Below, piece after piece: positions 4,983-44,141 of a DNA stretch of 64,000 nt. The DNA lies in assembly GCA_030390025.1 (NCBI GenBank), contig JASTWF010000033.1, positions 2,730,001 to 2,794,000 on the forward strand, written 5' to 3'. The notes beneath the pieces are model-generated. The model did no database searches. It was not told the DNA's origin and saw nothing but the letters and a program-made list of their open reading frames with translations. How positions within the stretch are numbered: the stretch's first letter is position 1; every line of letters starts with the position of its first letter. Source of the stretch: Squalus acanthias (lineage: Eukaryota). A program made the translations under genes and the position numbers.

Positions 4983-5051
4983 ATGAAAGACGGGAACATA
5001 TACACAGCGAAACCCAGTAAGAGGTTGAAAACTTTTGGTGCACAATACAAT

Positions 5052-5810
5052 GGCCTAGAAATTCGGGTGGCCGGCTTGCCGCGGGGGTAAGGATCGCGCG
5101 TGCTCTTACCTACTGCGCCTGCCGTTGTGTTTCGGGCCCAAAGGAACTTCGGGTCCTCGGCCTCTCCCTAGTGCCGATGCGCAGAGCTTGCGTGTCTCAG
5201 GGGCGCAGTTCGTGCTATGCGATCCCTGGGATCACGTGGGCCATGGAGAGCCAATGGCAGCAGACCATCTTTCATTCATAGATTTGACAGGAGACCTGTC
5301 AAATCTGTGAATTGAAATCGGCACTTAAAGAACAGCTAAACCTCAAATAAATAAAAAAAAATCACATTAATGAAATAACTATAGTTAAATAAATTAAACA
5401 CTTTAAACAAAAATTTAAATTTTTGAAAAAATTTAAATTCTTTTTAAAAGTTACAAAAATAAACTTACCTTTCTTTAAAGTCTCTAAAAAAGATAAACCT
5501 GTTGAAAAAAAATTAAAATTATATTTAATTAACTACTTACCTTGTTCAAAGGGGGTCTTACGCCTCCTTTTTACTTGTGTAGAATCTACCATACTTACCC
5601 TCGCGTTGAAACCTGAAAAAAATCCTAAGTGTGCTGCATGCGTGCAGCCTCTAGCGCACACGCGGTTCACTTCGGAACCGCCCCCTTCGTCATACCGGAA
5701 GTGCCGGTTTCCCGCGCATGCGCAGTGCATGCAGGAATCCGGCACTTCGGGAACGAATACGGCTGAGTACGCAGCGGGTACTCTCCCGTATTCGGCCGAA
5801 TTTTTGGGCC
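5052..5810. mobile_element. MITE family A copy 1 (PIF/Harbinger-like non-autonomous DNA transposon)
   Basis: TIRs GGCCTAGAAATTC / GAATTTTTGGGCC, AAT duplicated on both sides; homologous to four other copies in the window. Confidence 0.88.
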
Positions 5811-5992
5811 AATGTTTTCTTTAAGATGCATTTATACAGCTTCTTTTACATCTACACATCGCAATACACTTTATACAAAGAAATACCTCTGAAGTCTGGA
5901 GCCTGTTATGTCGCTAATGTGTTAATGAATATAACTGTGTGATGTGTCTGAACAAATGAATGTTACAGGTTCATTTCCAATGCATTACTATG

Positions 5993-14182: not shown

Positions 14183-15414
14183 AGTAGAATAGAAAAGTGA
14201 GAACCAGTGGATGTGGTGTATTCGGACTTTCAGAAGGCTTTCGATTAGGTCCCGTATAAGAGATTAGCCGTGCAAAGTTAATGCACATTGGATTGGGGGT
14301 GAGGTACTGGCTTGGATAGATAACTGGTTGGCAGTCAGGAAGCAAAGAGTTGGAATAAACGGGTCTTTTTCCGAGTGGCAGGCAGTGACTAGTGGGGTAC
14401 CGCAGGGAACGGTGCTAGGACCCCAGCTATTCACAATATATATTAATGATCTAGACGAGTATACTAGATGTAATATCTCCAAGTTTACAGACGACACAAA
14501 GCTGGGTGGGCGCGTGTGTTGTGAGGTGGATGCAGAAAAACTCCAGTATGATTTAGACAGGTTGGGTGATTGGGCAGACGCATGGCAAATGCAGTATAAT
14601 GTGGATAAATGCAAGGTTATCCACATCGGTATCAAAAACAGGAAGGCAGATTATTATCTGAACGGCAATAGATTGGGGAAAGGGGAAGTGCAACGGGACC
14701 TGGGTGTCCTTGTGCACCAGTCGCTTAAGGTAAGCATGCAGGTGCAGCAGGTGGTTAAGAAGGCAAATGGTATGTTGGCCTTCATAGCGAGAGGAATCGA
14801 ATAGAGGAGCAAGGATGTTTTCCGGCAGTTGCACAGGGCCTTGGTGAGACCACACCTTGAGTATTGTGTGCAGTTTTGTTCGCCTTATCTGAGGAAGAAT
14901 GTTTTTGCCATGGAGGGAGTGCAGCGAAGATTCACCAGACTGATACCTGGGATGGTAGGAATGACGAATGAAGAGAGATTGGGTCGATTAGGCTTATATT
15001 CGGTAGAGTTCAGAAGAATGAGAGGGGATCTCATTGAAACTTATAAAATTCTAACAGCACTAGACAGACTAGATGGAGGAAGGATGTTCGCAATGGCGTG
15101 GGAGTCCAGAACCAGGGATCACAGTCTAAGGATAAGGGGTAAGCCATTTTGGACTGAGATGAGGAGGAATTTCTTCACCCAGAGTGTGGGGAACCTGTGG
15201 AATTCTCTACCAAAGAAGGCAGTTGAGGCCAATTCATTAAATATATTCAAGAAAGAGATAGATATATTTCTTAAGGCTAAAGGGATCAAGGGATATGGGG
15301 AGAAAGCAGGGCAGAGTATTGAATTTGGATGATCAGCCATGATCTCATTAAATGGCGGAACAGGCTCGAGGGGCCGAATGGCCTACTCCTGCTCCTATCT
15401 TCTATGTTTCTATG
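14183..15414 (+). mobile_element. 5'-truncated CR1 LINE
   Basis: RT ORFs 14328-14804 (FTDD) and 14829-15332; TTCTATGT tail. Confidence 0.92.
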
Positions 15415-16085
15415 TGTGGTGATGGTACTCCCATAGTGCTGTTAGGTAGGGAGTTACAGGATTTTGACCCAGCAACGATGAAGGATCGGCGATATTCATC
15501 TAAGTCAGGATGGTCTGTGAATTGGAGGGGAACTTGGAGGTGGTGGTTTTCCCATGCGCCTGCGGCCCTAGTCCTTCTAGGTGGCAGAGGTAGCGGGATT
15601 GGGAAGTGCTGCCGAAGAAGCCTTGGCGAGTTGTAGATTGTACACACTGCAGCCACGGTAACCCGGTGGTGGAGGGAGTGAATGTTTAAAGTGGTGGATG
15701 GGGTGCCAATCAAGCGGGCTGCTTTGTCTTGGATGGTGTCGGGCTTCTTGAGTGTTGTTGGAGCTGCACTCATCCAGGCAAGTGGAGAGTATTCCATCAC
15801 ACTCCTTACTTGTGCCTTGTTGATAGTGGAAAGGTTTTGGGGAGTCAGGAGATGTGACACTCGCCGCAGAATACCTAGCCTCTGACCTGCTAATGTTGTC
15901 ACAATATTTATGTGGCTGGTCCAGTTATGTTTCTGGTTACTCGTGGCCCCCAGGATGTTGAGAGTGGGGGAATCGGCGATGGTAATGCCATTGAATATCA
16001 AGGGGAGGTGATCAGACTGTCGCTTGTTTTAGATAGTCTTCGCCTGGCACTTCTGTGGCGCGAATGTTACCTGCCACTTTTCAGC
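15415..16085 (-). mobile_element. Non-LTR retrotransposon fragment (RT C-terminus, second LINE family), ending at the ERV LTR
   Basis: WTSHIN...GQRLGILRR...VRSVMEYSPLAW; same family as 30584-31897. Confidence 0.8.
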
Positions 16086-17645
16086 TGCAGCTTCCAAAAG
16101 CTCTTATAATAATTTGTCCGTGACTACACAAACCATTCAGGGTCCAGGTATATTGTGTATCAGTAAAACAGGTTTATTAGCATTAAACATCCAGTACAAA
16201 GAAGTAATACTTAACAAGGAGATAGTCACAGTCGTGTTCGTTTGAGCCTCGGCGTTCCTTCCGAGTGACTGTGGTGCGGTCTCTTTCTTCTCTTGCTGTT
16301 TTCGCTTGACAGCAGATCGCTTCTCTGGTTTCTTGCTGTGTTCTGTCGACTGAAGCTTCTTCAACTCTGGTTCGCGCTGCCTTCAATGTTCAAAATCCGT
16401 ATCTTTATACACCTTTTTTCCTCTTCCTACGTGACTGTAACAGCTATCAAACACCTGGTAAATGTTTTACGACATTGTTCATCCTACTCGGACTCGCTTT
16501 GGGCCCTTTTAACTTTAGATATTCTCTTTCCAAAGACCATTTCCCAAGAGGTTGTCTAAACAAACTGTCCATTTTATAATAGTTATCACTGATAGGTGCT
16601 TCTCTTATTTATCTCCCTCTTCTCCAACTCTTATCTCTTTTCTATCACATTACTGAATACCACCTCCCTGATAGTCCCCATAAACTTAGCATTACATTCC
16701 GTTACTTCAGAAATTGAAAACAGAGCGAGTTTCAGTCAGGTTGGCATAATTTCCCATCCTGCTTTTCTCTCAGCAATTTGACATTTTATACAGTCTTTTA
16801 GGCTTTTAACATACAATTTCAAATATTGGCCCGAAAATTAGAACTAATACGGGAGATTACGCACTGTGTACTCTCGCGTATTAGGTCCCGAAGTTCCGGT
16901 TTCCTGCATGCACTGTGCATGCGCGGGAAACCGGCACTTCGGGTATTGCGAAGGGGGCGCTCCCTAAGTGAACCGCGTGCGCACTACAGGTTGTGCGCAC
17001 GCAGCGCAATTAGTTTTTTTTTCAGGTTTGAACGCGCAGGTAAGTGTTGAAGATTTTACACATAAAGAAAGCAGGCGTAAGACCCCCTTTTAACAAGGTA
17101 AGTAGTTAATGAAGTATTATTTAAAAAAATTTCAACAGGTTTATCTTTTTAGAGACTTTAAAGAAAGGTAAGTTTATTTTTATAACCTTTAAAAAGAAAT
17201 TAAATTTTTTCAAAAATTTTAATTTTTGTTTAAAGTGGTTATTTTATTTAACTATAGTTATTTTATTAATGTGCTGGCTTTTTTTTAAATTTAATTGAGG
17301 TTTAGCTGTTCTTTTGCGGGCTTGTTGTATTCATAGTTTTGACAGCTCTTCCTGTCAAAACTATGAATGAAAGATGGTGTGCTGCCATTGGCTCTAACTG
17401 GCCCACGTGATCCCAGAGGTAGCATCGAACTAACTGCGCCTCTGGGATACGCACACACTGCGCGCCGGCACCAGGGAGAGGCCCAGGAACTGAAGGTCGT
17501 GTGGGCCAAAACTATAAAGGTAGGCGCGGAGTGCGATATCGCGGGGGATCCTTACCCCCGCGGCAACCATCGAAATCCAATTTCTGGGCCATTATAGTTA
17601 GACAAAAATGTTTCACTAAATCAAACAAATACACCATATCCTACG
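16086..17645 (-). repeat. 3' LTR (interrupted by MITE 16828-17590)
   Basis: Aligns end to end with 29733-30479; minus-strand TATAAA at 16404-16409 and AATAAA at 16173-16178. Confidence 0.92.
16828..17590. mobile_element. MITE family A copy 2
   Basis: TIRs GGCCCGAAAATT / AATTTCTGGGCC, ATT TSD; the other LTR has a single ATT at the empty site (~30426). Confidence 0.92.
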
Positions 17646-17658
17646 AATCCCTATCTTG
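17646..17658 (-). other. Putative polypurine tract
   Basis: Minus strand AAGATAGGGATT abutting the 3' LTR; short and imperfect. Confidence 0.5.
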
Positions 17659-17687
17659 AGGGCGATGCATTTGCAGACCCCGCAAAA

Positions 17688-20600
17688 CTAAACTCTTACA
17701 TATGGATTAGTTTCTTTTCGTTTGTGTAACTCTAAGTTATTTTGGGCTGTGATCATATTTAAAAGTGATTGCGTATTACACATCGGGTGTTTCAGGTAGC
17801 AGGTGTATAGTAGTAAGCATATTAGTACTGTGAGTTGGGCTACGACCAGTACATGTGAAATTATTCTAATCCAAGGAGAAATATCAATATTTGTTCCTTT
17901 ATCCCACCAGTGGCTCTGAATCTCGATGTCTGGAATTTCCTCGGCTATATCTTTACTTCCTTGCACCAACGTATAATAATGGCGTTGAGAGGTGCTCACT
18001 TGACTTATTAGCTCGGTTAATGCTTCAGGTAACTCAGAGATGTCATATCCGAATCTTGTGACATAATCTTCTAGATTTATTTTTAAATCATCAACTACTT
18101 GTAGTACGTTTTGGCCATTTGAGGCTATAACAAGGAGAATTCTTCGTCCTATTACCGTAGTCTTTGTAGGGGTCATTCAGTAGGTCCCTAGGGTTATTGA
18201 ACATTCACGTGTTCCATGACTATAGGAGTTCTTTAAATTGGTAAAATAATACCCCCCTTCTCGTAAGTAGGCTGTTCCAATTCTTACATCTGCGGGGCCT
18301 GTAACTTCCATGGTACAGTTTAACCTTTCTTCATTCCAACCATATCCACAGGTATCCTTTGAATGTTCCCATAAACTGTATGGATAGACAAAGGCATCCT
18401 CATTTGTATTGCATCTCTGGAGGTTTGGTTCAATCCATGTTAGTTTTCCTAATTGTACTAACCATTGTGGTGCCATGAGAAATCGGGTAATAGTATTCCC
18501 TTGTACTACTCCTATATTTCTATCCTAAATAAGGGGTTGGGCCCAGTTCGATTAATTAGACTAGGTATTTGTAGTATTAGTCCCATCAACCTTTGACTCC
18601 CTACCTCGTGGCATTCGGGTTTGACAGGGTGGATCCTAATCAAACTCCTGATCTTACATAGTTCTGCATCATCGTAATAATTGGATAGCCCTGATAAGTG
18701 TTTATTAGTGACCCAAGTGGGGAGACGTCCCTGATTGATGGTCTGAAGGTTTTCCCTAGTTTGTTCAATTAGCCAATTCCCGTACATAATGCATACATCA
18801 TTATGGGCTTCTTGATCAGAAGCATTTCTGTTTTCTCTAATCTGATCATTAATTGTTTTGGCACGATCCTCTATTTCATGTATGATGTCCCGTAGGTGTA
18901 TGGTCATTACCTGATCCTCCCTTAGCTCCTCACTTACTATGTTGTTTTCCCTACTAAGTTTCTCTTTCAACGTTTCCCTTACCGTTTGTAATTACATAAG
19001 AACATAAGAACATAAGAAATATGAGCAGGAGTAGGCCAATCAGCCCCTCGAGCCTGCTCCGCCATTCAATAAGATCATGGCTGATCTGATCCTAACCTCA
19101 AATCTAAAGAACACAAGAAGTAGGAGCAGGACCTGGCCACTCAGCCCCTGGGCACGCTCCGCCACCCACAGGGCCCTGACCGATCCGAACTCAGCCTCAT
19201 GTCCAATTTCCTGCCCGCTCCCCGTAACCCCTAATACCCTTTACCTCTAGGAAACTGTCTATTTCTGTTTTGAATTTATTTAATGATGATGTAGCTTCCA
19301 CAGCTTCCTTGGGTAGCAAATTCCACAGACCTACTAGCCTCTGAGTGAAGAAGTTTCTCCTCATCTCAGTTTTCAAAGAGCAGCCCCTTATTCTAAGATT
19401 ATGCCCCCTAGTTCTAGTTTCACCCATCCTTGGGAACATCCTTACCGCATCCACCCGATCAAGCCCCTTCACAATCTTATATGTTTCAATAAGATCGCCT
19501 CTCATTCTTCTGAAATCCAATGAGTAGAGTCCCAATCTAGTCAACCTCCCCTCATATGTCCACCCCCTCATCCCCGGGATTAACCGAGTGAACCTTCTTT
19601 GTACTGCCTCGAGAGCAAGTATGTCTTTTCTTAAGTATGGACAACAAAACTGTACGCAGTATTCCAGGTGCGGTCTCACCAATATCTTATATAACTGCAG
19701 CAATACCTCCCTGTTTTTATAATCTATCACCCTAGCAATAAAAGCCAACATTCCGTTGGCCTTCTTGATCATCTGCTGCACCTGCAAACTAACTTTTTGA
19801 TTTTCTTGCACTAGGAACCCCAGATCCCTTTGTACTGCAGTACTTTCCAGTTTCTCGCCATTAAGATAATAACTTGCTCTCTGAATTTTCCTGCCAAAGT
19901 GCATAACCCCACATTTTCCAACATTGAATTGCATCTGCCAAATCTCCGCCCACTCACCCAGCCTGTCTATATCCCCTTGTAGGTTTTTTATGTTCTCCTC
20001 ACTTTCTACTTTCCCTCCCATCTTTGTATCAACTGCAAACTTTGATATGTTACACTCGGTCCCCTCCTCCAAATCGTTAATATAGATTGTAAAGAGTTGG
20101 GGACCCAGCACCGACCCCTGCGGAACACCACTGGCTACTGGTTGCCAGTCCAAAAATGAACCATTTATCCCAACTCTCTGCTTCCTTTTAGATAACCAAT
20201 CCTCCACCCATGCCAGAATATTTCCCCCAATCCAGTGATTTTTTATCTTGAGCAATAATCTTTTATGTGGCACCTTGTCGAATGCCTTCTGGAAGTCTAA
20301 ATACACTACGTCCACTGGTTCCCCTTTATCCACCCTGTACGTTATGTCCTCAAAGAACTCAAGCAAATTATGTTTATCTAAATGTTCCGTTACTGTCTCC
20401 TTAATAATAGACTCCAAAATTTTACCCACCACAGATATTAGGCTAACTGGTCTATAATTTCCAGCCTTCTGCCTACTACCCTTTTTAAATAAGGGTGTTA
20501 CATTAGCAGTTTTCCAATCTGCCGGGACCTTTGCTGAGTCCAGGGAATTTTTGAAAATTATTACCAAAGCATCCACAATCCCTACTGCCACTTCCCTCAA

Positions 20601-22776
20601 GACCCTACGATGTAAGCCATCAGGTCCTGTGGATTTATCCGCCTTGAGTCCCATTATTTTACTGAGTACCAATTCCTTCGTGATTTTAATCGTATTTAGC
20701 TCCTCCAAACCTAGAGCCCCCTGTTTGTCCAGTGTTGGGATATTCTTCTTGTCCTCTACCGTAAAGACTGAAACAAAATATTTGTTCAGCATTTTTGCCA
20801 TCTCCATGTTTCCCACCATTAATTTCCCGGTCTCATCCTCTAAGGTACCTACGTTTGCCTTAGCCATCCTTTTTCTTTTTATATAACTATAGAAACTCTT
20901 GCTATCTGTTTTTATATTTTTTGCTAATTTATTTTCATAATCTATCTTCCCTTTCTTAATCAATCATTTAGTTATTTTTTGCTGTCTTTTGAACACTTCC
21001 CAATCTTCTATCCTCCCACTAAGTTTGGCTACCTTATATGTCCTTGTTTTTAGTCGGATACTATCCTTAATTTCTTTACTTAGCCACGGATGGCTGTCAT
21101 TTCTTTTACACCCTTTTTTCCTCAGTGGAATATATTTATTTTGAAAGTTGTAAAATAACTTCTTAAATGAACACCACTGCTCATGTACCGTCTTACCCTT
21201 TAATCTATTTTCCCAGTCCACTTTAATCAATTCCGCTCTCATACCATCATAGTCTCCTTTATTGAAGCTCAGTACGCTTCTTTGAGAACCAACCTTCTCA
21301 CCCTCTAATTGGATATGGAATTCAACCATGTTATGGTCACTCATTCCAAGGGGATCCTTAACTAGGATATTATTAATTAATCCTGACTCATTACACAGGA
21401 CCAGGTCCAAGGTTGCTTGTCCCCTTGTAGGATCAGTTACATACTGCTCAAGAAATCCATCCATAATACACTCAATAAACTCTTCCTCAAGGCTGCCCTA
21501 CCCAATTTGATTTGTCCAGTTAATATGATAGTTAAAATCCCCCATAATTATAGCTGTTTCCCTTATTACATGCCCCAACTATTTCCTGATTAATACTTCT
21601 TCCATTGTTTTTGTAAATCTGCAGAACCATTGAGTTAATTACCGATGTTACTGTGTTGAAACCTGTGAGTCCAGCGTTTATCAATCCTCTTTTCGGTCTA
21701 CTCTTTACCTGGCTGCTCTCTTTGGTGGTTCTAAACTCGTGACGGATGGTCCCTTCTGTTTTCTCTACACTTATAGGTAAGGGCGCCTTTTCCCAGTACG
21801 GATTAAAAACTTGCTGCAGCATTCTCTGAGTTAGTTGTGCTGTTTTGGGCAGCACTTTGGTAGTATTAGTTCTGTTAAATTTAGGATAACTGGTGGGTAT
21901 AATTACAACACCGTTCCCAGGTGCTGGTGTTAGTTGGGGTCATTATTCCTCGGGTAGACCTTCTCGTGATTCTGAATGACTTGCTTTCTCATCGGGTGTA
22001 AGCTTAACACTATAGACATACCCATCGTCCCTTACACATCCAGTTTTTGCATTTTCGAATTCTATTATGCTATTATATTTATTCTCAAATCCCTATAATT
22101 TCCCCAATTTTTAAAGTCATCATAAAGGGTTTCTGTTCTGCCGCGGTGACCTCTATATCGTCTCTGGGAATCTCATATCCTGCTGAGGTAATCTTTACAT
22201 CATATTCGGGAATAGGAGGCCTATCATCATCCTGATTTTTAAAGCCCATGGTAATATTCGACCCAACACAAGAATACTGGCCGGTATGTTTCTTCCACCA
22301 CCGAGGCCAGCATAATTGTATATTTCCCTTACTTTCCGAAGCTACTGGTCCCCGATTTGCGTCTTGTACCTGTTCCCAGATTCCATTATTTTTCTTCAGG
22401 AATTTCCACACATGTGGGCCTTTCCTGTTCCTTATCCCACACCTGATACACACACCATATCCTTCTTTTATTTCCCAATTATACACCTTTTCTTTTAATG
22501 TACACAACCCGTTATGTATGGTGTTGTTATATTATATGTTGTACTATTTCTGATCCAAACAGGAACATCCCCCTAATACGTCTCGGATGATCCGTTATAG
22601 TTCTTTGATTGTTTATGTCCGCCAACAATTCGAGGTTCTATTCCATAGATGGGGAGTAGGGCGCATTCGCCTCCTTCGTCCAGTGTACAGATGTTAATGG
22701 TAAAGTCAAAAGTTTGTGTTTCCTCCGGAGAGCTCACTGCACATCCAATTATCAGTATCAGCCTACAGAGCCACAT
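17688..22776 (-). pseudogene. env: Retroviral env (signal peptide, Ig-like SU, furin site, long TM), split by CR1
   Basis: MWLCRLILIIGCAVSS signal peptide; RPKR|GLINAGLTGFNTVTSVINS at 21699-21630; heptad-like and Cys-rich segments 18177-18970; TM helix IISHVLVVAQLTVLICLLLY; YVRV tail; frameshifts and stops. Confidence 0.85.
18992..21609 (-). mobile_element. Young 5'-truncated CR1 LINE inserted in env
   Basis: 588-aa RT ORF 19197-20963 plus APE ORF 20964-21464; (CATAAGAA)n tail; candidate TSD TTTGTAA at 18985-18991 and 21610-21616. Confidence 0.93.
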
Positions 22777-22783
22777 CTTTAAA

Positions 22784-22800
22784 CTGTGGGTAAACCAAAA
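22784..22800 (-). promoter_or_regulatory. Putative env splice acceptor
   Basis: Minus strand TTTTGGTTTACCCACAG, 7 nt upstream of the env ATG and just after the pol stop (22810-22812). Confidence 0.6.
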
Positions 22801-22809
22801 TGTTACATT

Positions 22810-25800
22810 TTAATTCTGAACAGTTTTCATCTGATTGATATGGAACCATTTCAGTTTAGATTCTCCCTTCGGACCATATGGGGTATTCAGTAGATACACA
22901 GCTGGATTTAATTTATCTACTATAGTATGAGGGCCCTTCCATTTTATCTCGAATGAGTGTTTTTTTCGGAGAGAAATGTTGTAACATTACTCGGTCTCCA
23001 GCATCATACTCAAATAGTTGTACCCTCTTATCATAATATCGCTTGATTTGTTCACGCGATTTGCCTATGTTAATGGCCACCAGCTTGCTTACCTTGTCCA
23101 TATGATCTATCGAGGTTTGTAACCATTTTTGGCTACATGGTTGTAGTTTTAATGGTGTGTTATTTCCCAATGTTACATGTCCTGGTATCTGCATTTGTCT
23201 CCCAGTCATAGCCTCATATGGACTTACCCTCGTAGTCCCGTGTGGGGTAGAGCGTATTGCCATTAGACATAAAGGCAACATGTCAGTCCACTGAGTGGGG
23301 TTTTCTATACACAACTTCTGCAACATTGGCCCAAAAATTATTCCCAGTCCGCGAGAGTACGCACTGTGTACTCTCGCGTATTCTGTCTCCAATTGCCGGT
23401 TTTCTGCATGCACTGCGCATGTGCTGAAAACCAGCACTTGGTGAACTCAAAAGGGGGCGGTTCCTAAGTGAACCGCGTGCGCGCTACAGGCTGCGTGCAC
23501 GCAGTGCAATTAGTGCGTTGAACGCTCAGGTAAGCATGGAAGATTTTGCACATAAAGAAAGGAGGCGTAAGACCCTCTTTGAACAAGGTAAGTAGTTAAT
23601 TAAGTATTATTTTAAATTTTTTTCAACAGGTTTATCTTTTTTAGAGACTTTAAAGAAAGGTAAGTTTATTTTTATAACTTTTAAAAAGATTATAAATTTT
23701 TTCAAAAATTTAATTTTTTGTTTAAAGTGGTTAATTTATTTAACTATACTTATTTTATTAATGTGATGGTTCTTTTTTTAAATTTAATTGAGGTTTAGCT
23801 GTTCTTTTGGGGGGTTTTGATTCATAGCTTTGACAGCCCTTGCTGTCAAAACTATGAATGAAAGATGGTGTGCTGCCATTGGCTCAAACTTAATCACGTG
23901 ATCCCACAGCTCGCACGAATTAACTGCGTCTGTGGGATGCGCACACACTGCACAGCTGCAGCCTTGAAACTAAAGTTCGTGTGAGCTCGGAAGGAAAAGG
24001 CAGGCGCGCAGTGAGATATTGCGGGGAAGCCTTACCCCCGCAGGAAGGCTCCGTCTTTAATTTCTGGGCCATTGTCTTTAAAAGTTCGATTTCCCCTCTC
24101 CGCAATCCCTGATGATTGTTGATTGTGCGCAATGTACAATTTATGTTTTATCTGTAACATTTCTTGCAGAGTTATGTAAACTGCCTCCGTAAAGTGTGGA
24201 CCCTGATCGCTATCCACTTGTAATGGCAATCCCCACCTGCAGAACACCTCACTCAGGAGAATTCGAGCTGCGGTGCGCGCTGTGTTATTTCTCGTGGGAA
24301 AAGCCTCGATCCATTTGGTGAAGTGATCGATTATCACAAGTGCGTACTCATAGTTTCCCTTGGATTTTGTTAGTGGACCAATAAAGTCAATCTGTAAGTG
24401 TGTCCATGGTCCCTCAGGAGGGGGTTCTGACCGAAGTAAAGCGCGATTTGAACATGAAGGGGGGTTTGTCTGCCGGTATGGCAGGCAGCGATTAACATAT
24501 TGTTCCACATACTGTTCCATTCCAGCCCACCAGCAAACAGGTAATAACTTTTGTAGTGTAGAGGCCGCTGAGTAATGTCCCGCCGCCGGGTGAGAATGAA
24601 AGAGAGCTAGAATTTCTTCCTTCAACTGAGGATTAATACAAACTACTAGATCTCCCTCTTTATTCCAGATCATTAGTAGGGGAGGGGTTTTATCTACACC
24701 TTGTTGCATTACAGTGGTGTCTGCCCATAGGGTGGGTGCTAGTAGCGGGCATCCCTGTTGATGTCAGGCTATTACCTGTGCATATGCATCCTGTAGGGCC
24801 AAAAGATCAATGGTTTTAGTCTCAGGCTCCGTCCCCACTACGGGTGTCTGAGTACCATTCATCACCCACCAAGGTAGTAACTTTCCATTCTCCGCCACCT
24901 CCTTAGCAAAGCGATCGGCCATTTGATTACATCGGGAATGGGGGGATGAATCTTTCTGATGGGCTGCTACCTTACCCACGTGAAGAGGGGCGACTCGTTC
25001 CTGGAGCACTTTCCATAGCTTACGGAGGAGACCAGAATGTAATAAAGATTTACCATCTGATGAGCAAAACTCATTTGTATTATAGAGGGGAAGAGCCATA
25101 ACTGTGTTACAAACGTAACTGCTGTCGGACCAGATATTTGATTCATCCATAGTCGTGTAATGTACGGCTAGAATTGCAGCAATCAGTTCTGCCTGTTGGG
25201 AGGAGTGGAAGGGAACTTGAAATTCCTCTGACCAATCGTGAGCGTCGATATCAATAAGGGCTCATCCAGTTCTAGGATGGCCGTCTACATAGTATGATGA
25301 CCAGTCAACGTACACATTTCGATCTCCGGGTATGGCGTTAGCCTTTACTGGATTTGGTTCCATATCTAGCACTGGTAATGGACACCGGTGTGGGCTTCCC
25401 TCATAGGCGAACATAAGGGGTAACAGCGTGGTTCGTTTAGGCGTAATGTCCTGGTCCCGCTGTAACAATTCGAGTGTCCATTTACTTATTCGCTGAGAGG
25501 ATACCTTGGTCTCACTTGGTTTTAACAGCAGATTAAGGGGCGTTTGTGGTGAATGCAGAATGACTTTCTGCAGTCTGGTAATGTAGGTGAAATGATTGAC
25601 TGCCCAAAATGTGGCAAATAGATGACGTTCACACGCTGAGATTGCACTTTCCACCCCTCGTAGTAGACGTGATGCATACGCGATAGGGCGTAGTGTCTCG
25701 CTGATTGCCTGTTTCTGATTCAAAACGGCAGTTAGTCTGGTAGGGGTGGAGCCTACTTCAAGGTGAAAGGGCTGACCGTGATCCGGGTAATGAGAGCAGC

Positions 25801-26996
25801 TGCCTGTGTCGTGGCTTGTTTCAAAGCACTAATCGCAGCAGTAGGTTGGACACCCCATACGGGTTGTATCTCCCTTTAAAAGATCATACAAATGTTTAGC
25901 CAAGACTGCAAAATACGGAATAAAATTTCGCTGGTATTCGAGCAAACCTAAAAAGGATCGCAATGCAGTCTTTGAAACTGGTAATGGGAGTCGCTGAATA
26001 GTCTCTATCTTCTTGTGGTCCGGACTAAGGCCAGTCGCTGAAATTTTTACTCCCAGAAAGGTAACCTCATCTTTTGCCAGCTGACCCTTTTTTGGATTTA
26101 TTTTCAGCCCTGCCTTTTGTACTAATCCTATCAGCTCATCTAGGAGTTCTAGGTCTTCTTCCATTGTTTCAGTAGCCAAAAGTAGATCATCAACATCCTG
26201 TAGAAGGGCTGAAGGTTTAGAAAAGTATTTAGCTGCTCGTGCCGTATACTGATGAAAGATCGATGGCGAGATATGAAACCCTTGCGGTCGTCACGTAAAT
26301 GTGTAGCCCTGCCCTTCAAACGTGAAAGCAAATTTGTACTGGTCCTCCTGAGCAACTGGAATACTCCAAAAACCACTCACTCTGTCTAAGATGGAGAAGA
26401 CAGTGGCCTTGGGGGGTATGGATTGTAGTAGTGAAGGGGCTTGACTAACAGTCGGGATTTGACGTGGGGAAGCTTTATTTAAGGCACGGTAATCAATAAT
26501 AAACCTCCAAGATTCATCCGGCATCCTAACTGGCCATGCAGTGGAATTGCTATTTAATTAACATTTGCGCAGTACTCCTTGTTCTTCCAATGAGGCAATG
26601 ACTGTTCGCAAATACGGATTACTTTCTCGGCGAATCTGATATTGTTTACATGCGCGATGGGATGGCCCATTAATTCGCGTCACCCTTTCCATCCTTTCGA
26701 AGTCGTGTTTAGATTTAGCAAAGGCTTCTGCATGTTTGGTCACGAAAGAGTTAACAGCAGGCAGAGAATGTGTCAGAGTGCTATCTGCTCAGGCTTCTTT
26801 ACAGCAAATAACGAGCGAGCGTCTGAGATTTGAACTACATCCCCCGGTTTAGACTCAACCCATAAACAATTCTGATTGTAATCTATAATGGCTGTCATTC
26901 CCCTTAGGGTATATTTCCCAAGTAGCCCATTCTGTATGTCATACACATGTACAATGGATCGGTAATTTTTACGGGGAATTCCTCGAGGGAAATATT
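22810..26996 (-). pseudogene. pol: Retroviral pro-pol (protease remnant, RT, tether, RNase H, integrase)
   Basis: NGLLG..L...AIID protease C-terminus; WRFIIDYRALN; LDRVSGFWSIP; LQDVDDLLL (YVDD position, ~26190); RPIAYASR tether; VYVD..S, QQAEL, WSDSSY, NQMAD RNase H; HSH..AGH, QIDFIGPL, SDQGPHF, SSGIAER integrase; ends WFHINQMK. Confidence 0.92.
23328..24070. mobile_element. MITE family A copy 3 in integrase
   Basis: TIRs GGCCCAAAAATT / AATTTCTGGGCC; ATT TSD; integrase continues on both sides (ERGNRT..|MLQKLC). Confidence 0.92.
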
Positions 26997-27725
26997 GGGC
27001 CAGAAATTCGGGTCTCCACGGATGAGTACGCGCAGGGTACTCACCCGCAGATTCAACGAAAGTGTCGGTTTCGCGCATGCACTGTGCATGCGCTGGAAAC
27101 CGGAACTTCCGTTCCCCTGAAGGAAGGGGTTCAGAGATCGAACGCGTGCGCCGGCGAGGCAGCGCATAGACCTCGAACTTCGTTTTTTTTTCAGGTTTCT
27201 CCATAAGGGTAAGTACGGAGAAGCTGTGCGGGGAAAAAGGAGGCGCAAGGCCTGCTTTTAACAAGGTAAGTGGTGAATTACGTACAATTTAAACATTTTT
27301 TCAACAGGTTTATCTTTTTTACATACTTTAAATAAAGGTAAGTTTATTTTTAGCACCGTTAAAAAGTGTAATAAATTTTTTCAAAAATTAAAATTTTTGT
27401 TTATAGTAGTTAATTTATGTAAATTATAGTTTTTTTAAAAATCTGTTGATTTTTTTTTAATTTATTTTAAGTTTTAGTGAGGTTTTGGGGCCGATCTCTA
27501 TTCATAGATTTGACTGGTCCGATTGGCTCTCCATGGCCCACGTGATCCCAGGGGACGCTTCGAACTAACTGCGCCCCTGGGATACACAAGCACTCCGCGC
27601 CGGCAGCTGGAGGAGGCCCAGGAGCCGAATTCCACGCGTGCCCGAAGCACAACGGCAGCCGCGGTATGCAAGTACGTGCGCGATTCTTGCACCCGCGGAA
27701 AGCCGGAGAGCCGAATTTTTGGCCC
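26997..27725. mobile_element. MITE family A copy 4 at the gag/pro junction
   Basis: TIRs GGGCCAGAAATTCGG / CCGAATTTTTGGCCC; flanks ATT and AAT. Confidence 0.9.
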
Positions 27726-29560
27726 AATACGTGTCTGCATCATACATGACATTCTTTCAAAACGTGAGTCCATGGCGTCCAGCCTGCTATCCACTGGATG
27801 AAGTGAACGGGACGGTCCATATCTCGGGTAATAAAAGTTATTCCTCCCACCTCCCGAGCCTGTTTGTCTAGGACTTAGGCAATCTTTTGCAAAGTGTCCC
27901 ATCTTGCCGCAGTTGTAACACATCAACGATTGCCTACGGGGGTTTGATACTAGAGAAGCCTGGGGTCCCTCAAATATACTTACTGGCGTTTCTGTTGTTG
28001 ATGCCTGGACCTGAATTTTAGCTTAGTCCCATGGAGAAGTAGCTTCTCTTAGAAGGGCTGTCCATTGCATGTTGTGGCTGACCGTGCGCCTAAAGCTGCT
28101 CGCAGTGAGTCTGAATATTCTTCAAATATATTTTCTTAAATGCAGCTTAATCCTTCCCGTTCAAAACATCAACTTTGGAGCGTGCTTGCATCATTTCATA
28201 AATACTGTACAACCGATCTCTGAAAGCAGCAGGGTTCTCATGAGGCCCTTTTTGGGTTTGGTTTAATTTCTGAACCAAATCAATAGTATCCAAGCCTAAG
28301 CTGTTAGTATATATGTGATTAAGACATTCAGTGTGTTCCCCACATTAAAGGCCAAGAAGGGGCGACTAGTCCGTATGTCCAGAGTGAGAGCAGACAGTGC
28401 AACATTCTTCATGTCATTGTCCTCAAAATTAGGATGGTAATTCCAGAATGCAACTATACATTGCCTTAGCTCTATAGGGCATCTTTGTGGATTAACTGGT
28501 CCGAATTGTTGGACACATGCCTGTAGTTCTGCATAGTTTAGGGGCTGGGATCTTTCATAATTACCTGCCCACAGTATCCTTCGAGCTGCCGTTGGTTGTA
28601 CTCCTCCTTGTGGCTGCACCCCCTCAAAAGCTGGTGGCGCGTTAGGAATCATTGGGTACGAGTCAGGACATTAACCGGAGCTCTAACGGGCGCAAGTTCG
28701 TCCGCTGAGGTTTCGATTATATTTTTATTAGCATAGGCTGGAGGTCTTTCAGCCAGGTCGATTGTGTCATATGGGACGGGGACCTTACGGGAAGGAAATA
28801 TCAAGGGAGATTATAGCTCCCCGCTTAACCCCTCGCGTTCTTTATCATAACTTTTGGGTGGGTCTACTCCCGTGACTGCGGCTATTACAGCCCATTGTTT
28901 ACCCAACTGATTTTCTAACTGTTGTATTGTATTCTGACATTGCTTGTGGTCTAACTCCCTGTGGGGGCGCTGAAGAGCCTCTCTCGGGGCCCCTCGTGAA
29001 TAATTTAATTGGCTGATCTAACAGTCATTATCTTTTGTTAAGAAGGCTACTTGGCTTTTACCCTCCTCAAGATTCTGTATTGCAGCGTCTGCATGAACTG
29101 CAGTAATACTCTGCTGTTGTATTATTGCTGTTGCAGCACCGATTAGTCCTTGAAGGACTTCTTGTGTATTGTTTAATTATACAGTTTCTTTTTCCCATTT
29201 TAATTTCTCACCCTGTAGCTTTAGATTCTCTTCTATAAGCTGTTCCAATTTTGACTTTTTACCCTGTAACGTTAGATTCTCTTCTATAAGCCGTAGTTTG
29301 TATTTTTCTAATTTATCCTGCTCATCTTCCATCTCTAGGAATGTTTATTTATCTTGTTTTACACAACACACAGCGGCATAGGCCATTAGCTGCGCTGCCC
29401 AATCCGGTTTCCGTTTCTTTTCCTTAACTTGACTTTCAATGAACGCCACAACGTCCACGAAAAGTACCTTCGCATCCTTTGTTAGACATTCTACTAACAT
29501 CTGTAACTGTGCCTCATCGCACTTCTTCATTAACTTCGCTTAATAGTCTCCAAGAAAATT
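27726..29560 (-). pseudogene. gag: Retroviral gag (N-terminal coiled coil, PPxY, capsid-like region, CCHC knuckle)
   Basis: CYNCGKMGHFAKDC knuckle at ~27880-27920; PPAY at 28733-28744; E/K/L/Q-rich helical region 28900-29400; start codon uncertain. Confidence 0.82.
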
Positions 29561-29711
29561 CTCACTCGAAATTCTGCTGTACGTTAAAGAGACACTGTCT
29601 GTTAGAAAACCAGACTTTCCACGAGGATCCTCGTTGATCAGAGGAAAATCCAAGTGAAAATCCAAACGCCTGCTTTCTGCACAATAGACCTGGTTTCAGT
29701 TAATAGTCACA

Positions 29712-29729
29712 GTCCCTGTCCGGGCGCCA
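29712..29729 (-). promoter_or_regulatory. Primer binding site, tRNA-Lys3
   Basis: TGGCGCCCGGACAGGGAC, 17/18 match to the canonical Lys3 PBS TGGCGCCCGAACAGGGAC, 3 nt from the LTR end. Confidence 0.92.
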
Positions 29730-29732
29730 AAT

Positions 29733-30479
29733 TGTAGCTTCCAAAGGCTGTTATAATAATTTGGCCGTGACTACAAAAATCACTCTGGGTACAGGTATAT
29801 TGTGTAGAAGTTAAATAGGTTTATTAAGCATTAAACATCCAGGACAAGGAAGTAATACTTAACAAGGAGATAGTCACAGTCTTGTTCCATTGAGGAACGC
29901 TGTTCCTTCCGAGCGACTGTGGTGCGGTCTCTTTATTCTCTTGCTGTTTTCTCTTGACTGAAGCTCCTTCAACTCGGATTGTGGGTTCGTGCTGCCTTCA
30001 GTGTTCAATATCCATATGTTTATACACTTTCCCTTTCTTTGCATACGTGACTGCAATCAGCTATCTGACACCTGGCACCTGCTTTTGACCTTGTTGATCC
30101 CACTAGATCTCGCTTTGTGCATAGGAAAGGGCCCATTATCTTTACATGTTCTCTTTCCAAAGACCATTTCCCAAGATGTTATCTAAACATCACTGAGGGG
30201 TGCCTTTAATTTTTCTGTCTGATCTCTTCTCTTCTCTCTTTTCCATCACATTACTGAATACCACGTTCCTGACAGTCTCCATAAACTTAGCATTCCATTC
30301 CATTACTTCAGTCATTGAAAACACAGCGAGTTTCATTCAGTTTGGCATAATTTCCCATCCTGCTTTTCTCTCAGCCATTCGCCATTATATACAGGCTTTT
30401 AGGCTTTTACTATACAATTTCACATATTAGAGTTATACAAAAAATGTTTACTAATCGTACAAATACACCCTATCCTACA
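29733..30479 (-). repeat. 5' LTR
   Basis: TGTAG...CTACA termini; minus-strand TATAAA at 30019-30024 and AATAAA at 29820-29825; adjacent PBS. Confidence 0.93.
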
Positions 30480-30583: not shown

Positions 30584-31897
30584 TCAATTTTTATTCATTA
30601 ATGGGATGTGGGCGTCGCTGGCATGGCCAGCATTTATAGCCCATCCATAATTGCCCTTTAGAAGGTGGTGGTGAGCCTTCCTGAATCGCTGCATTCCGTG
30701 TGGTGAAGGTACTCCCACAGTGCTGTTAGGGAGGGAATTCCAGGAATTTGACCCAGCGTTAATGAAGGAACGACGATATACTTCTAAGTAAGGATGATAT
30801 GTGACTTGGAGGGGAACTTGGAGGTGGTGGTGTTCCCGTGCGCTTGCTACCCTTGTCCTTCTAGATGGTAGAGGTCGTGGGTTTGGGAGGTGCTGCCGAA
30901 GAAGCCTTGGCGAGTTGCTGTAGTTGGTACGCACTGCAGCCACGGTACGCCGGTGGTTGAGGGAGTGACTGGTTAAGGTGGTGGATGTGGTGCCAATCAA
31001 GTGTGCTGCTTTGTTCGGGATGATGTCGAACTTCTTGAGTGTTGTTTGAGCTGCACTCATCCAGAAAAGTTTAGAGTATTCCTTCACACACCTGACTTGT
31101 GCCTTATAAATGGTGGAAAAGGCTTTTGCGATTCAGGAGGTGAGACACTCGCCGGAGGATACCCAGCCTTTGACCTGCTCTTGTAGCCACAGTATTTATG
31201 TGGCTGGTCCAGTTAATTTTCTGATCAATGGTGACAGCCAGGACATTGATGGTGGGGGATTTGGCGATGATAATCCCACTGAATGTCAATGTTACGTGGC
31301 TCTTGTTGGAGATAATCATGACCTGGCACTTGTGTGGCGCGAATGTTACTTGCCACTTATCAGGCCAAGCCTGTAAATCGCCCAGGTTTTGCTGCATGCG
31401 GGCATGCACTGCTTCATTATCTAAGCAGTTGCGAATGGAAGTGAACAATGTGAAATCTTCAATGAACATCCCCACTTCTGACATTATGATGGAGGGAAGG
31501 TCATTGATGAAGCAGCTGAAGATGGTTCGGCATAGGACTCAGCTCTGCAGTGATGTCCTGGGGATTAGATTATTGAACTTCTACAACCATATCCTTCTTC
31601 CTTTGTACTCGGTATGACTCCAGCCAGTGTAGAGTTTCCCTCCTGATTCCCATTGACTTCAGTTTTACTCGGGCTCCTTGATGCCAGACTGGGTCAAATG
31701 TTACCTTGATGTCAACAGCAGTCACTCACCTCACCTCTGGAATTCAGCTCCTTTGGCCTTGTTTGGACCGAGGCTGTAAAGAGTTCTGGAGCCGAGTGGT
31801 CGCGGCGGAACCTGAACTGAGCGCCAGTGAGCAGGTTATTGGTGAGTAAGTGCCGATTGATAGCACTGTTGATGACAGCTTTCATCACTTTGCTCAT
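30584..31897 (-). mobile_element. Non-LTR retrotransposon fragment (same family as 15415-16085)
   Basis: RT ORFs 31104-31484, 31712-31897 and 30584-31087; T-rich tail at ~30577-30600. Confidence 0.82.
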
Positions 31898-38740: not shown

Positions 38741-40531
38741 GTGGATGAGAATGGGGAATTAATAATGGGGAACGGGGAAACGGCAGAGATTCTGAACAAA
38801 TATTTTGTATCTGTCTTCACGCTAGAAGACACTAACAACATCCCAATAATGGATAATCAAGGGGCCACAGGGAGGGGGGATCTAAAGACAATCACTATCA
38901 CGAAGGAAAAAGTACCTGGTAAAATAATAGGACTAAAAGACGACAAGACCCCTGGACCAGATGGCCTGCATCCCAAGGTCTTAAAAGAAGTGACTGCAGA
39001 GATAGCGGATGCATAGCTTGCAATTGCAATATACCAAAATTTCCTGGACTCTGGAGAGGTCCCAGCGGATTGGAAAACCGCAATGTAACACCCCTATTTA
39101 AGAAAGGAGGGAGGCAGAAAGCAGGATACTATAGACCAGTTAGCCTATAATCTGTCGTTGGGAAAATGCTGGAGTCCATCATTAAGGAAGCAGTAGCAGG
39201 GCATTTGGAAAATCATAATGCAGTCAAGCAGAGCCAGCATCGTTTTATGAAAGGGAAATCATGTTTAACAAATTTGCTGGAGTGCTTTCAGGATGTAACG
39301 AGCAGGGTGGACAAGGGTGAGCAGGTGGATGTGGTGTAATTGGATTTCCAGAAGGAAATCGATAAGGTGCCACATAAAAGGTTACTGTATAAGATAAGAG
39401 CTCACGGAGTATGGGGTAATATATTAGCATGGATAGAGAATTGGCTAACTAACAGAAAGCAGAGAGTTGGGATAAATGGGTAATTTTCCGGTTGGCAAAC
39501 GGTAACTAGTGGGATGCCACAGGGTTTGGTGCTGGGGCGTCATCTATTTGCAATCTACATTAATGACTTCTATGAAGAGACCGAGTGTAATGAAGCAAAG
39601 TTTGCGGAAGATACAAAGATAGGTGGGAAAGCAAGTTGTGCAGAGGACTCAAATAATCTGCAAAGGGATATAGACAGGCTAAGTAAGTGGACAAACATTT
39701 GGCAGATGGAGTATAATGTGGGAAGGTGCGAGGTTATCCTCTTTGTCGGGAAAAATAAAAAAGCCAATTATTGAAATGGAGATAGATTACAAAATGCTAC
39801 AGTTCAGAGGGACCTGGGGGTCCTTGTGCATGAAACACATACATTTGCATGCAGGTACAGCAAGTAATCAAAAAGAAAAAATGGAGCATTGGCCTTTATT
39901 ACAAGAGGGTTGGAATATAAAAGCAGGGAAGACCTGCTCCATCTTTACAGGGTATTGGTGAGACCACAGCTTGAGTACTGCGTACACTTTGGTCTCCATA
40001 TTTAAGGAAGGATATGCTTGCATTGGAGACAGTTCAGAGACAATTGACACGGTTGATTCCGGAGAAGAGGGGTTTGACGTATGAAGAAATTTTGAGCAGG
40101 CTGGGCCTATACTCATTGGAATTTAGAAGAATGAAATGTGATCTTATTGAAACATATAAGATACCGAGGGGGCTCGACAAGATAGATGCAGAGTGGATGT
40201 TTCCCCCCGTGTGGAAAATTAGAACGCGGGGGCAAATTCGCAGAATAAAGGGTCGCCCTTTCAGAACTGAGATGAGGAGGAATTTCTTCTCTCAGAGGGT
40301 TGTAAATCAGTGGAATTCTCTGCCCCAGAGAGCCGTGGAGGCTGGGAAATTAAATACATTTAAGGTGGAGATAGACACATTTTTGCAAGATAAGGGAGTG
40401 TAGGGTTATGGGGAGCGGGCAGAGAAGTGGCTTTGAGTCCAAGATCAGCCATGATCTAATTGAATGGTGGAGCAGGATCGAGGGGACAAGTGGCCTATTC
40501 CTGCTCCTATTTCTTATGTTTTGTTCTTATG
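38741..40531 (+). mobile_element. 5'-truncated CR1 LINE
   Basis: KTPGPDGLHPKVLKE; FAED; FFSQRVVNQWNSL; TTCTTATG tail. Confidence 0.9.
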
Positions 40532-40537
40532 TTAAAC

Positions 40538-41203
40538 TGACAGGACCAGTCACAGAGGCTTTGCAAAGAGACAGCACCAGTCACATAGGCTTTTTAAAAA
40601 TGCTCGACCAGACACACAGGCTTTCTAAAGAGACAGAACCAGTCACACAGGCTTTGTAAAGAGACAGGCTCATTCACGTAGCCTTTTTAAAGAGACAGGA
40701 CCAGTCACATAGGCTTTTTCAAGAGACAGGACCAGACACACAGGCTTTTTAAAGGTACAGGACCAGTCACATACGCTTTATCAATGGACAGGTCCAGCCA
40801 GACAGGCTTTATAAAGAGACAGGACCAGCCAGACAGGCTTTATAAAGAGACAGGACCAGCCAGACAGGCTTTATAAAGAGACAGGACCAGCCAGACAGGC
40901 TTTATAAAGAGACAGGACCAGCCAGACAGGCTTTATAAAGAGACAGGACCAGTCACACAGGTTGTCTAAAGAGACAGGACCAGCCAGACAGGCATTATAA
41001 AGATACAGGGACAGGCACACAGTGTTTGTAATAGACAGGGCCAGTTACACAGGCTTTTTAAAGAGACAGGACCAGTCACACAGGCTTTATAGAGAGACAG
41101 GACCAGACAGATAGGCTTTTTAAAGTGACAGGACCATTCACATAGGCTTTTTAAAGAGACAGAACTAGTCACACTGGCTTTTTAAAGAGAGCAGGCCAGA
41201 CAC
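40538..41203. repeat. 30-31-bp satellite, block 1
   Basis: Unit GACAGGACCAGTCACACAGGCTTTNTAAAGA. Confidence 0.95.
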
Positions 41204-41206
41204 TTA

Positions 41207-42457
41207 GATTTCTATGTAAGGACTCTATTCCATTCTCCCAGTTTCTCTGTCTCCGCCGCATATGCTCTGACGATGCCACCTTCCATACCAGTGCTTCCGA
41301 CATGTCTTCCTTTTTCCTCAAACGAGGATTCCCCACTACTGTGGTTGACACGGCCCTCGACCGTGTCCATTCTATCTCCCGCACTTCTGCCCTAACCCCT
41401 GCCCCTCCCTCCCGGAACCACGATAAAGTTCCCCTTGTCCTCACCTTTCACCCCACCAGCCTTCACATTCAACGGATCATCCTCCGCCATTTCCGAAACT
41501 TCTAGAGATCCCAACACCAAACGCATCTTCCCCTCACCTCCCCTTTCAGCATTCCGCAGGGACCGCTCCCTCCGCGACACCCTAGTCCACTCCTCTATCA
41601 CCCCCAGCACCCCTTCCCCTTCGCCCGGCACCTTCACGTGCAAGCGCAGGCTATGCAACACATGCCCTTATACCTCCCCTCTTCCCACTGTCCAGGGCCC
41701 CAAACACCACTTCCAGGTGAAACAGCGATTTACTTGTACTTCCTGCAATTTAGTATACTGTATTCGCTGCTCACGATGTGGTCTCCTCTACACTGGGGAG
41801 ACCAAACGCAGATTGGGTGACAGCTTTGCGGAACACCTCCATTCAGTCCGTGAGGGGGACCCCGAGCTCCCGGTGGCCTGTCAATTTAATTCTCCGCTCC
41901 ACTCCCACTCTGACCTCACCGACCTCGGCCTCTTGCATTGTTCCACAGAAGTTCAGCGTAAGCTCGAGGAACAGCACCTCCTCTTTCGTATAGGCTCCCT
42001 AAAGCCATCTGGACTCAACATCGAGTTCAACAATTTCAGATCATAACCTCTGTCCCTATCACATTTATATGTTTTTATTTTATTTTTTCATCCACCCTTT
42101 TGTTTGCCATTTCTTTCCCTCCCAGAAGCTGCCAGCTGTCCTTCATTCTGCCAGCGCATCTCACACTTATTCTAGCCTCAACCTCTCACATTAACACCTC
42201 CTCTTGCCTTGATTATCTCTTAATGTCACTCAATGTCTCTTAATCTCTCCTGCTTTATATCCCAGCACTGACCTTCCCTTTTGTTCTTTCTTCCCCTCCC
42301 CCTTTTCCCAGCTTTATCCTTGCTTTCAATCTATTTCATTTCCTGCTTTTTTCCAGTACTGACGAAAGGACTTCGACCTGAAACGTTAACTCTGTTTCTC
42401 TCTCCACGGTTGCGGCCTGGCCTGCTGAATTTTTCCAGCGTTTTCTGTTGTTATTTA
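41207..42457 (+). mobile_element. Penelope-like element 3' part with GIY-YIG endonuclease
   Basis: TCKRRLCNTC...VYCIRCSRCGLLYTGETKRRL..F.EH in ORF 41435-42046. Confidence 0.92.
42355..42391 (+). ncRNA. Minimal type I hammerhead ribozyme motif
   Basis: AGTA-CTGACGA-AAGGACTTCGACCT-GAAA-CGTT-AACT; both core boxes intact. Confidence 0.68.
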
Positions 42458-44130: not shown

Positions 44131-44141
44131 GGTAGCACCAA

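Follow-up and report, generated by a model that had tools for sequence, protein, structure and literature searches.

A decayed env gene in Squalus acanthias whose intact product was probably a class Ib (F-type) fusion protein

We analyzed a 64,000-nucleotide stretch of the Squalus acanthias genome (assembly GCA_030390025.1, contig JASTWF010000033.1, positions 2,730,001 to 2,794,000; hereafter the window), which holds a decayed endogenous retrovirus (ERV). The region at 17688..21699 is in our judgment quite probably the fusion subunit from this old ERV's broken env gene. The virus would probably belong to the snakehead retrovirus (SnRV) group (clade Huo, class III). When intact, the protein was likely a class Ib, or F-type, fusogen, the kind represented by the F proteins of paramyxoviruses and pneumoviruses. 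Coordinates are those of the window, and the env, gag, pol and long terminal repeat (LTR) features described below lie on its minus strand. Most of the published sources were available in part and are cited for those parts.

Sequence features of the env gene and its relatives

Outside an inserted long interspersed nuclear element (LINE), env can be read as a surface subunit of about 363 codons, a basic cleavage site, and a fusion subunit of 28 + 155 + 278 = 461 codons, with ~403 of these before the membrane anchor. The gene starts with a signal-peptide-like hydrophobic stretch at 22732..22776, judged from its hydropathy (2.08 over 15 residues). The end of the surface subunit that would be equivalent to F2 (21700..21939) is 29% identical to the skate relative P0040, and it is followed by the furin-type site RPKR at 21688..21699, where the relatives carry basic sites of the RxKR or RxRR type. 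The fusion subunit opens with a G/A/T/S-rich, fusion-peptide-like stretch (21604..21687), conserved in relatives P0040, P0050, and P0053. This stretch is only mildly hydrophobic, with a best 19-residue Kyte-Doolittle mean of 0.99. The LINE, a 5'-truncated, non-viral insertion of the CR1 type, occupies about 18994..21604 and was recognized from other LINE copies in the window and from a match to RVT_1 (E 3.6e-22). Beyond it lie a putative long N-terminal helix (heptad repeat A, HRA) with a domain-III-like core (18525..18991; 35% identical to P0053) and a Cys-containing, beta-rich core, the likely equivalent of domains I and II (18045..18524; 33% identical to P0053, with strands predicted in the relatives). 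A membrane-proximal heptad helix (heptad repeat B, HRB; 17916..18044), a transmembrane anchor (17808..17864; hydropathy 2.59), and a cytoplasmic tail of ~39 residues (17688..17807) complete the subunit. The tail ends in YVRV, a YxxPhi motif also found in P0040, and a stop (17702-17688, stop codon 17690-17688).

An earlier note on this DNA, made from its letters alone, had described RPKR followed by a G/A/T-rich fusion peptide, more than 400 codons once the CR1 is removed, a membrane-proximal helix, and an anchor with a YxxV tail. Each of these was recovered, and the heptad pattern of the membrane-proximal helix was matched in 1 of 2000 shuffles, for a segment chosen by eye. The note had also seen no CKS17 or CX6CC motif; we found neither CX6CC nor the immunosuppressive motif L[QE]N[RH]xxLD in the three window pieces or in the four of four intact relatives checked. 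Its multi-Cys region stood in part: Cys residues are present in the ectodomain pieces, but only 7 remain (3 + 4), fewer than in the relatives. Since the window pieces match intact relatives in the same order (E 4e-41 and 6e-36), the layout is not a chance pattern. This env copy cannot make protein because it is interrupted by the LINE, by frameshifts, and by stops. Apart from the LINE, a frameshift near 18520 and an in-frame stop at 18179-18177 break the fusion subunit, and additional frameshifts and stops lie in the surface subunit.

Searches with Env returned 15 matches at E ≤ 0.001, one of which, a 19-residue repeat match, was discarded. The other 14 were all looked up, and eleven of them carry names from Heptranchias, Pristiophorus, Heterodontus, Chiloscyllium, Rhinoraja, or Xenopus; five of these genera are sharks or skates, which would point to a cartilaginous fish as host. 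The C-terminal env piece had no match among 1013 candidates in a word-indexed search of longer proteins, and none in a sequence search of the PDB. Gene models P0041, P0046, P0006, and P0040, from shark, skate, and frog, fuse env-family pieces to cadherin-related 5, fbxo15, or Pol exons, and may be annotation artifacts or real exonization.

Fold of the fusion protein and its surface module

The fold evidence was obtained from predicted models of two intact natural relatives, used as proxies for the window copy. Of these, P0053 spans the fusion subunit, with 35% and 33% identity to the two long window pieces; the full-length P0052 is about 25% identical to the window Env; the two are 28% identical to each other. 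For the P0053 model, the matches listed by Foldseek were all F proteins of human metapneumovirus (hMPV) and respiratory syncytial virus (RSV) down to rank 13 (best hMPV F, E 7e-4), with foamy virus Env next (E 7.5e-3). For the P0052 model, 107 PDB chains matched at E ≤ 0.001, with foamy Env (8e-6) first, then RSV F (2e-5) and human parainfluenza virus 3 (hPIV3) F (2.8e-5). Among its 40 listed PDB matches, 39 were by title paramyxovirus or pneumovirus F or foamy Env, and the remaining one was a designed class I fusion protein. For P0052, rows 1-5 of a search of 48,161 chains made without Foldseek went to Newcastle disease virus (NDV) F, foamy Env, and the F proteins of hPIV3, measles, and RSV. 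The alignment to NDV F (Z 7.8, root-mean-square deviation 3.9, 129 aligned) covers the F2-like part and domain III, and the P0052 part that corresponds to 21700..21939 is aligned with NDV F from residue 54 onward. Residues 81-173 of P0053 align to hMPV F 177-279 (Z 5.0), and domains I and II of the F core were found by Foldseek alone.

These results agree with what the earlier note had proposed, a layout like F1 of the Mononegavirales class I proteins. The elements of a class Ib protein are found in order, from the basic cleavage site and fusion peptide through HRA, a long core, and HRB to the anchor, with HRA periodicity weak when taken alone. A core of domains I-III contributed by both subunits was found in the low-confidence models of the relatives. 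Neither the immunosuppressive domain with CX6CC nor the short transmembrane-subunit ectodomain of gamma-type Env was observed. As two models only 28% identical in sequence and two programs agree, the intact protein is likely, though not proven, to be a class Ib fusogen.

Several points weigh against this reading. The models of P0053 and P0052 are of poor quality (mean pLDDT 52 and 49, pTM 0.25 and 0.35), TM-scores were 0.28 or less, and the Z values from VIA were all below 8, within the background stated for that tool. A wide VIA search with P0053 returned generic helices only, with human immunodeficiency virus gp41 at Z 7.3, and a repeat structural comparison of P0053 gave Z of at most 5.4. 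The heptad-like stretch of the earlier note was predicted as a single long helix (HRA) in both relatives' models, but in a single-register test its periodicity, taken alone, was not significant (165 of 2000 shuffles). Pfam Fusion_gly (PF00523) had no match up to E 10 in the env pieces and P0052-P0054, or up to E 1 or 0.5 in the other relatives. The likeness to F might then be an artifact of poor models rich in long helices, and low pLDDT, low TM-scores, and Z values below 8 are what this explanation would draw on. We consider it very unlikely: the Foldseek alignments span 280-540 columns, the 107 chains and the listed matches point to one protein class, the best VIA matches reach beyond the coiled coil to F2 and the domain III core, and proteins only 28% identical led to that same class.

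Sequence profiles contributed little. The only long match of a profile built from the relatives was to hPIV3 F residues 271-477, at E about 1, and a second profile of relatives (A3) returned coiled coils and chance matches from the PDB, with hPIV3 F unlisted. No match above cut-off was seen to TLV_coat, Foamy Env, or Baculo_F in the env pieces and relatives, Baculo_F reaching E 0.0011 in P0046 only, and GP41 was hit at E 0.041 in 1 of 16 members. The choice between Fusion_gly and TLV_coat, by which the earlier note had wanted its proposal checked, therefore gave no verdict, as neither matched.

To which branch of the class Ib family the protein is closest was approached through BFVD (model m4527b473d4a9), which gave 35 matches at E ≤ 0.001, ranging over a fish filovirus glycoprotein, Env of walleye epsilonretroviruses, F of paramyxoviruses and of baculoviruses, and foamy Env. 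The best was the Wenling thamnaconus fish filovirus glycoprotein (E 1.5e-9); walleye dermal sarcoma virus Env was matched at 3.3e-7 and walleye epidermal hyperplasia virus 1 Env at 5.7e-6, while SnRV Env was not named among the 50 rows listed. At the level of predicted models, these matches show a broad F-type family with no single donor. Separate capture of env from an F or G protein of Mononegavirales type, for example of a fish filovirus or paramyxovirus, rather than descent from a retroviral ancestor would suit the filovirus glycoprotein at the top of BFVD, the lead of pneumovirus F for the fusion-subunit model, and the env/pol recombination known in anamniote ERVs (10.1101/2021.11.23.469661). 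Nevertheless, foamy Env, Env of the walleye epsilonretroviruses, baculovirus F, and glycoproteins of several insect viruses fall in the same score range, all Env sequence relatives with an organism name come from vertebrate genomes, and Xenopus has both the nearest Pol and an Env relative, a hint that pol and env travelled together. We judge capture unlikely. Because foamy Env ties with F, no Mononegavirales donor is demonstrated, and the likeness, as far as the models go, is to the class Ib family as a whole. Foamy Env as best match, with no paramyxovirus signal beside it, was to have refuted the earlier proposal; it does rank first for the P0052 model, but it shares the F core (PMC11468914, in the part available), and so is no alternative to an F-like protein.

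About 250 additional residues precede the F2-like part, among them a probable immunoglobulin (Ig)-like module at 22256..22471. Membership of the Ig superfamily was judged by the C-W-C core of the Ig beta-sandwich, with these scores: Pfam Ig_3 at E 0.013, the Ig domain structure of MLCK at E 0.14, and the Atlas, where Ig families are the top clusters at 0.92. Counting against the assignment, the Pfam score lies below the curated cut-offs and only 160-168 Atlas features are shared. Because these are retroviruses without a separate attachment protein, the module is the likeliest receptor-binding part, an assignment made by analogy. In the same family, the env-like tail of Xenopus P0006 has a weak Ig_3 match (E 0.062), and the UniRef name of P0039 is 'Ig-like domain-containing'.

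F and foamy Env serve as the analogy for how the protein worked (PMC11468914, in part), and all functional steps are inferred from them. The signal peptide would direct the intact Env into the endoplasmic reticulum, and there it would trimerize and furin would cut at RPKR. The surface subunit would remain attached and supply the core with an F2-like strand and helix; receptor binding is probably the task of its N-terminal Ig-like module. Once the protein is triggered, HRA would extend and insert the fusion peptide; HRB would then fold back to form a six-helix bundle, and the two membranes would merge. YVRV probably serves in sorting or endocytosis.

Three intact members of the family stand apart. 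P0039, P0052, and P0055, open reading frames (ORFs) of 739, 754, and 754 amino acids in Chiloscyllium punctatum, Scyliorhinus torazame, and Heterodontus francisci, share 85-88% identity with one another and only 26-28% with the other relatives. On their sequences they may represent a host-captured F-type env in three shark orders. The Atlas placed P0039 in a chordate cluster at 0.82, which is a lead only.

The provirus and its placement among retroviruses

The placement of the element was assessed from its pol remnant (22825..26925; Pfam RVT_1, RT_RNaseH, RNase_H, Integrase_H2C2, and rve), which contains the C-part of a protease, a reverse transcriptase (RT) with the motif PQG at 26290-26276, a tether, an RNase H, and an integrase. 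The N-part of the protease was not found in the remnant. Dataset S2 of PMC7947760 (available in part) shows 15 canonical retroviral RTs, and 15 of 15 have PQG as well. Several more RT motifs, compared by eye, are nearest those of SnRV, ahead of gamma, epsilon, and foamy RTs. We built an RT tree from the window RT and 31 of its 36 Pol matches, five having been removed for short alignments. The window fell in a 9-row retroviral clade (100/98), beside Xenopus and coelacanth Pols and apart from rows of Ty3/gypsy type; pol is 49% identical to Xenopus tropicalis P0001, and the nearest Pol relative has an RVP-type protease. An errantivirus or Ty3/gypsy element would have a Ty3/gypsy-type RT without an added RNase H, whereas here the RT lies in the retroviral clade and is joined by a tether and RNase H.

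Two points count against the SnRV assignment: the tree has no named SnRV, loki, or foamy sequence, so that the assignment was made by eye, and the RT finds its best PDB match in foamy Pol (E 5e-43). Clade Huo, the SnRV-related class III group, is present in all major vertebrate groups, chondrichthyan ERVs included (available parts of PMC6001957, PMC12193657, and PMC8922424), and the elephant shark, a chimaera, is known to have SnRV-like ERVs (PMC4422223, in part). Since SnRV is classed in Orthoretrovirinae (PMC12193657, in part), the statement in the earlier note that orthoretroviral transmembrane ectodomains are much shorter holds for gamma- and beta-type Env but is too general: the RT here looks nearest SnRV, and walleye epsilonretrovirus Env is among the F-type matches.

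Two other placements were weighed against the SnRV group. A foamy-like ERV of cartilaginous fish (clade Tu) would make the long F-like fusion subunit a known type, that of foamy Env. Foamy Pol as the best PDB match of the RT, foamy Env as rank 1 for the full-length P0052 model, and the cartilaginous-fish endogenous foamy viruses cited in PMC11468914 (in part) all favor it. The RT motifs, on the other hand, are unlike all eight foamy or foamy-like RTs shown and better matched by SnRV by eye, and no foamy-specific Pfam family was found on the env, gag, or pol pieces. Foamy Gag is not known to carry the CCHC knuckle, and foamy viruses have a spuma protease; the gag remnant here carries such a knuckle, and the protease of the nearest Pol relative is of the RVP type. 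The F2-like part also stands directly before the cleavage site with the extra module N-terminal to it, whereas foamy viruses have a receptor-binding domain between the subunits. Finally, because the 3' LTR begins 43 nt past the env stop, there is no room for an accessory ORF, whereas foamy viruses have accessory genes at that place. We therefore regard a foamy-like origin as improbable.

A lokiretrovirus (lokiortervirus), of the published lineage with F-like Env and new for cartilaginous fish, was our initial reading. It was dropped for the RT, which has PQG where 24 of 24 loki RTs have PFG (a comparison of motifs only; PMC7947760, in part) and which ranks nearer to foamy and murine leukemia virus RT than to Ty3 in the PDB. 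The F-like Env with RxKR, the dual RNase H, and the coiled-coil N-terminal part of gag are all loki traits; in addition, Pol relatives are annotated as NYNRIN/GIN-like, and Env resembles Loki-Xtr Env by eye. The part of Env ahead of the cleavage site, however, is only ~115 residues long in Loki-Xtr and about 363 codons here, and none of the 6 chondrichthyan genomes in Fig. S1 of PMC7947760 was loki-positive, as far as that source was available. Of a lokiretrovirus we think there is hardly any chance, and the SnRV group is the placement retained below.

The full provirus, with the order LTR-gag-pol-env-LTR, occupies 16086-30479. The 5' LTR (29733..30479) has TG...CA ends and pairs with the 3' LTR (16086..17645), and directly after it lies the primer-binding site at 29712..29729, putatively of the tRNA-Lys type. 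As the LTRs are only 85% identical (682 aligned sites, Kimura two-parameter distance 0.169), the insertion is old. A loose estimate is ~38 million years with the mammalian rate, and the rate used for sharks in PMC4422223 (in part) makes it ten times older. The provirus ends showed no target-site duplication. The gag remnant, with approximate limits of 27730..29600, was recognized by translation and has many stops and a CCHC knuckle at 27920-27879 (Pfam zf-CCHC, E 1.9e-6). Its N-part appears coiled-coil-like by eye, and a repeated LIEENL heptad-like stretch at 29200-29540 on the minus strand, also seen by eye, resembles the coiled-coil extension of loki gag.

Three repeats of ~770 nt and the LINE entered the provirus after its insertion. 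One of these repeats lies inside the 3' LTR (16822-17593) and one interrupts pol at 23316-24078. They belong to a non-coding family with short internal palindromes, whose five window copies, 70-86% alike, are at 5026-5817, 16822-17593, 23316-24078, 26990-27726, and 53615-54369; the three in the provirus fall in the 3' LTR, the integrase, and the gag-pol junction, and the missing protease N-part adjoins the last of these. The provirus is flanked on both sides by copies of one and the same 3' part of a LINE-like element, in the same orientation and 82% alike, at 15414-16084 and 30698-31363. Arrays of a ~31 nt unit with more than 100 copies are interleaved with LINE fragments at 40460-50520 and scattered to about 61000.

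Many contigs ~90% alike over env were present in three of the four sequencing runs compared, which would fit a multi-copy family in related organisms. The env depth was about 1 or less in a single-cell RNA run that is not known to come from this species, so this has no bearing on expression.

Meaning and comparison with known systems

An F-like retroviral Env is already published for lokiretroviruses and foamy viruses. In the available part of PMC11468914, orthoretroviral Env is filed under class Ia and an F-like Env is particular to foamy viruses, while that of PMC9040795 prefers independent env gains and argues that the loki F-like Env is one of them. In the literature searched, we found no F-type Env described in the SnRV clade or in epsilon retroviruses and no Ig-headed one in sharks; Calcraft 2024, work on cartilaginous-fish foamy viruses, a co-option survey, and supplements may bear on this point. 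No relevant statement was found in the available parts of PMC12583693, 10.1101/2023.10.26.564294, PMC11521997, 10.1101/2024.03.17.585361, PMC13709493, PMC8922424, and PMC12456133.

A wider scenario, to which we give somewhat less than an even chance, is that an F-type Env is ancestral in retroviruses and persists in loki, foamy, the SnRV clade, and walleye epsilonretroviruses, the short transmembrane subunit of gamma, beta, and lenti type having arisen later by replacement or reduction. The shark lineage would then have added an Ig-like receptor head, and galeomorph sharks would have captured one env and conserved it as a host gene, a class Ib counterpart of the syncytins. An F-type Env on an SnRV-like RT, together with the walleye matches, would break the division between class Ia and F-like Env and favor an F-type ancestor. 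The F fusion design would be more widespread among retroviruses than the literature searched describes, and the origin of retroviral Env would become testable by structure-based trees. As for the locus, it holds only a dead copy.

Compared with paramyxovirus and pneumovirus F (class Ib; PDB 3rrr, 7m0i, 1ztm, 3maw), the shark Env likewise has a basic cleavage site, an N-terminal fusion peptide, a long HRA, a Cys- and beta-rich core, HRB, and an anchor, with a fusion subunit of ~460 residues, and these proteins are top fold matches of the relatives' models. It differs in having no significant sequence similarity (PF00523), in being encoded by a retrovirus, and in the added residues, with their probable Ig-like module, before the F2-like part. 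The foamy virus Env (PDB 8rm0, 8rm1, 8ozh; PMC11468914, in part) is likewise a retroviral Env with an F core, but its receptor-binding domain is inserted between the subunits, whereas the extra module of the shark Env is N-terminal, as in the coronavirus spike. The shark element also differs from foamy viruses in its short signal-peptide-like start, its CCHC gag, and its non-foamy RT motifs.

The lokiretrovirus Env (Wang and Han, PMC7947760, in part) shares an F-like Env with RxKR in a vertebrate provirus, and the Cys pattern and helix-to-core junction of Loki-Xtr Env look alike by eye. The RT class (PFG versus PQG) and the minimal N-subunit of the loki Env set the two apart. SnRV and clade Huo offer the best match of RT motifs by eye, although the SnRV tail has 136 residues against ~39 here and the shark element lacks a 3' accessory ORF, as far as the partly available sources on SnRV go. 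The gamma-type Env of anamniote ERVs (10.1101/2021.11.23.469661, in part) is comparable in its hosts and in the logic of cleavage into surface and transmembrane subunits. The shark Env, in contrast, has no immunosuppressive domain, CX6CC, or TLV_coat match, and its ectodomain is much longer.

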